Source of the DNA: Escherichia coli
Lineage (GTDB): Bacteria > Pseudomonadota > Gammaproteobacteria > Enterobacterales > Enterobacteriaceae
Assembly: GCF_003334785.1 (NCBI RefSeq)
Contig: NZ_QOWV01000001.1
Direction: 5' to 3' (one strand)
Length of the DNA stretch: 64,000 nucleotides
In this document: one piece after another, positions 60,370 to 60,408 of the stretch
Position numbering within the stretch: position 1 is the stretch's first letter
Layout: every line of letters starts with the position of its first letter
Position numbers and translations under genes: made by a program
Notes under the pieces: model-generated
What the model was told of the DNA's origin: nothing
The model's database searches: none
What the model saw: the letters and a program-made list of their open reading frames with translations, nothing else

Positions 60370-60408
60370 AACTAATTGGCGTTGCAGTACATGCAACGCC
60401 AATTAGTT
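60370..60408. repeat. perfect 17-bp-arm inverted repeat abutting the feaR stop codon
   Basis: aactaattggcgttgca gtaca tgcaacgccaattagtt; right arm overlaps the feaR stop by 2 nt. Confidence 0.7.

Follow-up and report, generated by a model that had tools for sequence, protein, structure and literature searches.

A perfect palindrome at the convergent 3′ ends of ydbL and feaR in Escherichia coli: a probable protective stem-loop of a Rho-terminated transcript

The DNA analyzed here (the window) is a 64-kb stretch of Escherichia coli (64,000 nucleotides; RefSeq assembly GCF_003334785.1, contig NZ_QOWV01000001.1). Towards its end, ydbL (59909-60235, plus strand) and feaR (ORF 60407-61312, minus strand) converge, as had been proposed from the sequence. 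The open reading frame and the MG1655 annotation identify ydbL as the last gene of the ydbH-ynbE-ydbL unit, an intermembrane phospholipid-transport operon according to the MG1655 product names. As ydbL ends at 60235, the two convergent genes are separated by 171 bp (60236-60406), and the palindrome described below (60369-60409) is situated on the side of this spacer that adjoins feaR. The ydbL 3′ untranslated region (UTR) before the palindrome (60236-60368, plus strand) consists of E. coli-specific spacer sequence, and on the opposite strand the feaR 3′ UTR would begin with the hairpin. Within the ydbL 3′ UTR, a second, imperfect long-range helix is predicted at approximately 60266-60342 (CAGGAGAAGGCGAUUGAUC ... 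GUCAAAUUGCCUUUUGCCCUG), and several E. coli SNPs fall inside it.

Over a 1.8-kb stretch at this locus, the window and MG1655 differ at two bases only (window 59830 and 60907). Local coordinates are converted by subtracting 1,385,971 from the NC_000913.3 coordinate, which places the palindrome at 1446340-1446380 in MG1655. This offset applies at the feaR stop (window 60407), whereas at the tyrR stop codon (window 26524) it is 1,361,737. The window is therefore approximately 24.2 kb shorter than MG1655 between tyrR and feaR, and the source strain is not MG1655 itself. The shortfall is close to the size of the Rac prophage (annotated at 1411899-1434958) plus approximately 1.2 kb.

The sequence of 60369-60409 is TAACTAATTGGCGTTGCA-GTACA-TGCAACGCCAATTAGTTA. 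Sequence inspection and a repeat search delimit a left arm at 60369-60386 and a right arm at 60392-60409 that are 100% complementary, and sequence and folding delimit a 5-nt loop at 60387-60391. The perfect inverted repeat of the original prediction thus exists, but the repeat finder returned arms of 18 nt instead of 17 bp. The feaR stop codon (TAA, 60409-60407 on the minus strand) is contained entirely in the right arm, whose last three bases, the outermost positions of the stem, are its complement; the overlap between arm and stop codon had been recognized correctly. As RNA, the hairpin is predicted to fold with −27.6 kcal/mol on the plus strand and −26.7 kcal/mol on the minus strand, with z-scores against shuffled sequences of −8.5 and −8.9, respectively; folded as DNA, the palindrome reaches −20.2 kcal/mol. 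On the plus strand only, the stem can be extended across a 2-nt bulge by five further pairs (60362-60366 with 60410-60414), to approximately 23 bp. No longer perfect hairpin is present in the 64-kb window, and simulation of 30 windows with the same first-order (dinucleotide transition) composition produced perfect stems no longer than 8 to 11 bp. The palindrome is a real, non-random feature, far above chance expectation. An Rfam scan of 59500-61700 at a permissive threshold returned only generic matches to hairpins of microRNA families, at 23 bits versus a gathering value of 97.

The sequences flanking the stem do not resemble those of an intrinsic terminator. After the stem, the plus strand continues with AGCGGAAUUUACG and the minus strand with AAAACAGAUAUUUGAC, neither of which is a U-run, as originally stated. 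A U4 run is found on the plus strand before the stem, not after it, and no A-tract precedes the stem on either strand. The palindrome was not called in a scan for consensus terminators.

Published MG1655 data place an RNA end at this site. A plus-strand 3′ end at 1446382 (window 60411), 2 nt beyond the last pair of the stem, is listed in Supplementary Table 3 of PMC10667835. In the sheet "PNPase ends in WT," it represents 0.484 of the local 3′ ends in the wild type versus 0 in the pnp deletion strain (log2 fold change, 5.3; false discovery rate [FDR], 0.040), and in the RNase II WT sheet it represents 0.484 versus 0 in the rnb deletion strain (FDR, 0.027). As expression is low (log2 cpm of ~3.6) and the FDRs are marginal, the support provided by this end is moderate. 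By the definition of the authors of that study, such ends are stops of exonucleolytic trimming due to stable stem-loops. The ydbH-ynbE-ydbL unit is delimited in the same work as 1443007 to 1446378 (Supplementary Table 7, operon 179), and its end, window 60407, is inside the right arm. The curated Term-seq list of Adams et al. contains no 3′ end at 14462xx-14464xx, and the SMRT-Cappable-seq supplements contain no entry for the palindrome site; low abundance is the likely reason for both absences. Full-text literature searches combining feaR with Term-seq and ydbL with feaR gave no match.

Transcription of the plus strand extends beyond the mapped end. A Rho termination region has been reported on the plus strand; its best-scoring position, 1446501 (Rho score, 4.03; P = 1.3e-5), corresponds to window 60530, antisense to feaR and 121 nt beyond the stem (Adams et al. 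2021; PMC7815308, Supplementary file 2); this coordinate is coarse, as windows of 800 nt were compared. Without bicyclomycin (BCM), coverage was 54 upstream and 14 downstream, while with BCM it was 87 upstream and 91 downstream (PMC7815308). As downstream coverage in the presence of the inhibitor is about equal to upstream coverage, the hairpin alone is not an effective intrinsic terminator. Past the stem, the plus strand has a raw C/G ratio of 1.3 to 2.1 (80-nt windows over 60416-60735), which would suit a rut-like region.

These data bear on the possibility that the palindrome is a non-canonical, perhaps bidirectional intrinsic terminator that works without Rho and may be aided by collisions between convergent polymerases. 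Such a terminator would fit a very stable hairpin exactly between two convergent genes and a published transcription unit that ends at the stem. Polymerase collisions have reportedly been proposed, in a study of terminators of convergent genes, to aid termination at hairpins. However, the U-tract after the stem and the A-tract before it are both missing on either strand, and the terminator scan was negative. The mapped end follows the stem by 2 nt instead of falling 7 to 9 nt into a U-tract, and its loss in the pnp and rnb mutants is unexpected for a primary site of termination. In addition, read-through in the presence of BCM is complete. The true bidirectional type is displayed by the neighboring feaB-tynA pair, with a canonical A6-stem-T6 terminator at 63066-63092 (AAAAAACGGCACC-TGG-GGTGCCGTTTTTT). 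Both elements are palindromic hairpins shared between two convergent transcripts, but the ydbL-feaR palindrome differs in having no flanking A/U tracts, in being read through completely under Rho inhibition, and in having an exonuclease-dependent 3′ end. Intrinsic termination at ydbL-feaR is thus very unlikely, and this candidate was rejected on the basis of its sequence, the BCM read-through, and the exonuclease dependence of the end. The earlier view that this is no typical intrinsic terminator is borne out by the absent U-run, the BCM read-through, and the requirement of the end for PNPase and RNase II.

A stem of this length also brings RNase III to mind, either through processing of the hairpin itself or through double-stranded RNA formed where the convergent ydbL and feaR transcripts overlap; cleavage would then control feaR or ydbL mRNA levels. 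The main text of an RNase III study (PMC6212723) gives approximately 22 bp as the length that the enzyme accommodates, and the plus-strand stem could attain approximately 23 bp across its bulge. Moreover, the mapped 3′ end would constitute a 2-nt overhang beyond the 18-bp stem, and plus-strand read-through into antisense feaR would supply the sense/antisense overlap. However, the 3′ end requires PNPase and RNase II and is located outside the 18-bp stem, whereas RNase III would cut within it. Neither feaR nor ydbL is mentioned in the main text of PMC6212723. Altogether, the original suggestion of an RNase III site has found no support, and we consider RNase III processing highly improbable here.

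Instead, the palindrome probably acts as RNA, as a 3′-terminal protective stem-loop of a Rho-terminated transcript. The published data establish that an RNA 3′ end exists at this site, that it requires PNPase and RNase II, and that Rho terminates transcription further downstream. In the sequence of events that we propose, RNA polymerase transcribing ydbH-ynbE-ydbL would pass through the hairpin, as a hairpin lacking a U-tract would not release it there, and transcription would run on into the antisense strand of feaR until terminated by Rho, diffusely and roughly at least 100 nt downstream of the hairpin. PNPase and RNase II would then trim the untranslated tail until both are blocked by the stem of approximately −27 kcal/mol. 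The result would be a discrete 3′ end located 2 nt beyond the stem, with the ydbH-ynbE-ydbL mRNA shielded from further 3′-to-5′ decay. We infer both the causal role of the hairpin in the exonuclease stop and the resulting gain in mRNA stability. Of the functions originally suggested for the palindrome, that of an mRNA-stabilizing stem-loop has therefore gained support on the ydbL (plus) strand, based on the PNPase- and RNase II-dependent 3′ end 2 nt past the stem and the Rho region downstream.

Elements of this type have been described previously. The class reported by Dar and Sorek in 2018 (PMC6061677) comprises stable stem-loops without a U-rich tail or an upstream A-tract. Directly behind the stem, PNPase and RNase II produce a sharply defined steady-state 3′ end, and BCM-sensitive, Rho-dependent termination takes place further downstream; rut-like sequence with C exceeding G was found downstream of these U-less protective stem-loops. 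The stem-loop without such tracts, the 3′ end, its exonuclease dependence, and the Rho-dependent termination beyond it are shared by the ydbL-feaR hairpin, and the raw C/G ratio behind its stem would be in keeping with rut-like sequence. Its stem differs in being longer than usual, perfectly palindromic, and A/U rich at its base, and in overlapping the stop codon of the convergent gene. Most likely, the ydbL-feaR hairpin is an ordinary member of this class, which is well documented for E. coli; its own 3′ end is known from entries in supplementary tables.

A close counterpart is present in the same window. The second-longest perfect hairpin, with a stem of 16 bp, is found between the convergent genes tyrR and tpx at 26530-26564 (MG1655 1388267-1388301) and reads AATATGCCTGATGGTG-CAA-CACCATCAGGCATATT. 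On the minus strand, the published tpx 3′ ends 1388267 and 1388266 lie at the base of this hairpin and are classed as PNPase and RNase II stops; on the plus strand, the tyrR unit extends to 1388304, 3 nt past the base. Like the ydbL-feaR element, the tyrR-tpx hairpin is a perfect palindrome without a U-run, located between convergent genes and with PNPase and RNase II stops at its base. It differs in its sequence and its 3-nt loop and is contained wholly in a 43-bp spacer, touching neither stop codon. Furthermore, 3′ ends are documented on both strands at tyrR-tpx but on the plus strand only at ydbL-feaR. The tyrR-tpx data indicate that the class is common and that one palindrome can serve both convergent transcripts.

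As the repeat is a perfect palindrome, the feaR mRNA would form the same hairpin, beginning at its UAA stop codon. By analogy with tyrR-tpx, whose hairpin seems to serve both of its transcripts, we propose that the ydbL-feaR hairpin would probably provide 3′ protection to the feaR mRNA likewise. The 3′ ends documented at the hairpin are from the plus strand only, and feaR was probably poorly expressed in the media used in the published studies. Judging from ribosome footprints, a ribosome positioned at the stop codon would keep most of the 5′ arm unpaired until its release. On the feaR mRNA, the stem would accordingly be able to fold only after the terminating ribosome has left.

Within E. coli, the palindrome is widespread but confined to one locus per genome. 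A 51-nt site containing it was found in 4,200 of the 5,426 complete E. coli genomes, always at the 3′ end of feaR; each genome is listed with "two places" because a single palindrome matches on both strands. No other copy of the arms is present in the 64-kb window when up to 3 mismatches are allowed. Likewise, plasmid and phage collections yielded no mobile-element copy, the matches resembling mislabelled chromosomal sequence as judged from record sizes and the ydbL context. A dispersed repeat (REP, MITE, or insertion sequence end) was thus rejected, given one locus per E. coli genome and no further copy in the window. We also take the palindrome to bear no resemblance to the REP consensus. 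The functional parallel with the REP/BIME 3′ stabilizers is that these too are extragenic palindromes whose RNA folds block 3′-to-5′ exonucleases downstream of a gene, and they are often tied to Rho-dependent ends (discussed in PMC6061677). The ydbL-feaR palindrome differs from them in being single copy, with one locus per genome across the 4,200 E. coli genomes and no mobile repeat in plasmids or phages.

Exact-match searches identified four main alleles in the 4,196 genomes counted as carrying the site. The K-12 type, with the unchanged, perfect 18-bp stem, is present in 1403 genomes, about a third of the total, and the original description of the palindrome as too perfect for a terminator was consequently overstated. 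In the UK_Dog_Liverpool/03_3013 type (1326 genomes), TG is changed to CA at 60392-60393, and the two loop-proximal pairs are lost. The E2348/69 type (881 genomes) combines G to C at 60378 and C to G at 60400, turning a G-C into a C-G pair, with A to T at 60386 in the loop-closing pair. The strain 504838/ATCC 8739 type (408 genomes) carries only the C-to-G change at 60400, which leaves an uncompensated G·G mismatch. About 178 genomes have other alleles. All four main alleles form stable stems (−20 to −27.6 kcal/mol), and the five variable positions affect either the top two, loop-proximal pairs or the compensated pair 60378/60400. This pattern points to maintenance of pairing, but four or five events are too few to separate selection from biased mutation. 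SNPs are as dense in the hairpin (5/41) as in the remaining spacer (18/133), which argues against extra sequence conservation, and the 408 genomes with a G·G mismatch indicate that selection on the stem, if any, is weak.

Conservation in relatives was assessed with FeaR-encoding loci from species-representative genomes, of which 4 were usable. In Pseudocitrobacter faecalis, P. vendiensis, and a Pluralibacter metagenome-assembled genome, the convergent ydbL and feaR stop codons abut without a single intergenic base. The junctions read TGA|TTA or TGA|TCA (L012:3395-3415, L013:3395-3415, and L014:3398-3418). With abutting stops, the ydbL and feaR transcripts of Pseudocitrobacter and Pluralibacter must end within each other's coding regions. 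The fourth locus belongs to a divergent lineage under the label Escherichia coli; its spacer is of another type, 70 bp long, and it has a TGA stop codon. This spacer type is absent from the complete E. coli genomes. Neither the palindrome nor a comparably stable hairpin is present at any of the 4 loci, and homology to E. coli restarts exactly at the feaR stop codon. Spacer and palindrome are thus a derived, E. coli-specific feature, and as the element is absent from Pseudocitrobacter, Pluralibacter, and the divergent Escherichia lineage, the operon in general does not require the hairpin. The original prediction had held that missing 3′ ends together with a lack of conservation in relatives would speak against it: 3′ ends do map to the site, while the palindrome is absent outside E. 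coli.

The allelic and comparative data also bear on a role of the palindrome as DNA, i.e., as a binding site of the operator type for a dimeric protein or as a cruciform affecting local topology or replication. The perfect dyad symmetry and the predicted DNA hairpin (−20.2 kcal/mol, as above) would suit such a role, and the core GTTGCA...TGCAAC loosely recalls what we take to be CytR-type half-sites. However, the palindrome occupies a position where two genes end and has no promoter-like site in its vicinity, and it is single copy, with related sites found nowhere else in the window, the E. coli genomes, plasmids, or phages. The half-site sequence varies within E. coli at 60378/60400 and at the dyad center, and the palindrome is missing in relatives that keep both genes. 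As the RNA-level data already account for it, a function as DNA is barely plausible, and the suggestion of a protein-binding palindrome has gained no support. A resemblance of TGGC..TTGCA to sigma-54 −24/−12 elements was dropped because of the wrong spacing.

A different account dispenses with selected function altogether. Replication template switching in the E. coli lineage could have duplicated a sequence in inverted orientation and thereby incorporated the feaR stop codon; the near-perfection of the arms and the compensated pair would then stem from the same mutational mechanism, and the exonuclease stop would be a side effect of any stable stem. Template switching has been documented as creating perfect hairpins and apparent one-step compensatory changes (PMC8794818). 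In agreement with this, the element is restricted to E. coli, with outgroups that have abutting stops or another, 70-bp spacer and homology resuming from the feaR stop. The hairpin is no poorer in SNPs than the spacer, imperfect alleles are common (1326, 881, and 408 genomes versus 1403 with the perfect form), and the adjacent TG-to-CA change at 60392-60393 resembles a single multinucleotide event. Like the hairpins of PMC8794818, the palindrome is a perfect, lineage-specific inverted duplication with an apparent one-step compensation and an adjacent double substitution; it differs from them in having no identifiable donor sequence or ancestral arm, and the likeness is limited to its origin. 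However, template switching concerns only the origin and maintenance of the palindrome and is compatible with the hairpin being a 3′-end barrier. Furthermore, all of the changes seen spare the stem core, although selection and biased mutation are inseparable with four or five events. A by-product of template switching is a serious account of the origin of the palindrome, but that the element is without any selected function appears unlikely.

The two ideas can be combined: a young, E. coli-specific hairpin that arose by a template switch capturing the feaR stop codon may later have been co-opted as a 3′-end barrier shared by both convergent transcripts. As the 5′ arm on the feaR mRNA starts at the UAA, 3′ protection of feaR would then hinge on ribosome release. 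This combined scenario is quite unlikely. If true, translation of feaR would be coupled both to how stable its message is and to how far this message overlaps with antisense ydbL read-through.

No new mechanism is revealed by the reading of the palindrome as a protective 3′ stem-loop, and its main value is for annotation. It explains where the ydbH-ynbE-ydbL mRNA ends and implies that plus-strand transcription normally enters antisense feaR before being stopped by Rho. The locus offers a clean, natural, and single-copy example of a U-less protective hairpin, and its allelic series (perfect, top-frayed, compensated, and mismatched stems) could be used to calibrate stem stability against exonuclease stops.

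The fate of feaR varies among genomes with the E2348/69-type allele, which presumably belong to phylogroup B2. In two of the sampled genomes, feaR is a C-terminal pseudogene fused to paa remnants and the hairpin is kept, while in a third feaR is intact. Retention of the hairpin next to a truncated feaR fits a role on the ydbL strand. In the fused loci (L002:1708-2286 and L008:344-651; E2348/69 and Ecol_AZ161 types), the C-terminal remnant of feaR is joined to a paaX or paaY remnant. These fusions imply the loss of feaB, tynA, and most of the paa cluster, with ydbL and the hairpin remaining.

Further rearrangements were observed in the ydbL-feaR spacer. In some genomes, such as E. coli MS20658 (L004:3037-3411), homology breaks at approximately window 60299, about 64 bp past the ydbL stop; in place of the feaR side, there is AT-rich DNA of unrelated sequence and then a very large gene for a hypothetical protein. 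In E. coli ETEC1739 (L010:1501-1600), the end of an IS1 element (GGTGATGCTGCCAACTTACTG...) is joined exactly within the palindrome loop, at the equivalent of window 60387, and everything from the right arm to pdxI is deleted. A further IS1 is present in strain S1-INA-02-A (L003) at approximately window 60319, where the deletion extends as far as ynbB. The spacer thus appears to be a recurrent IS1 junction.
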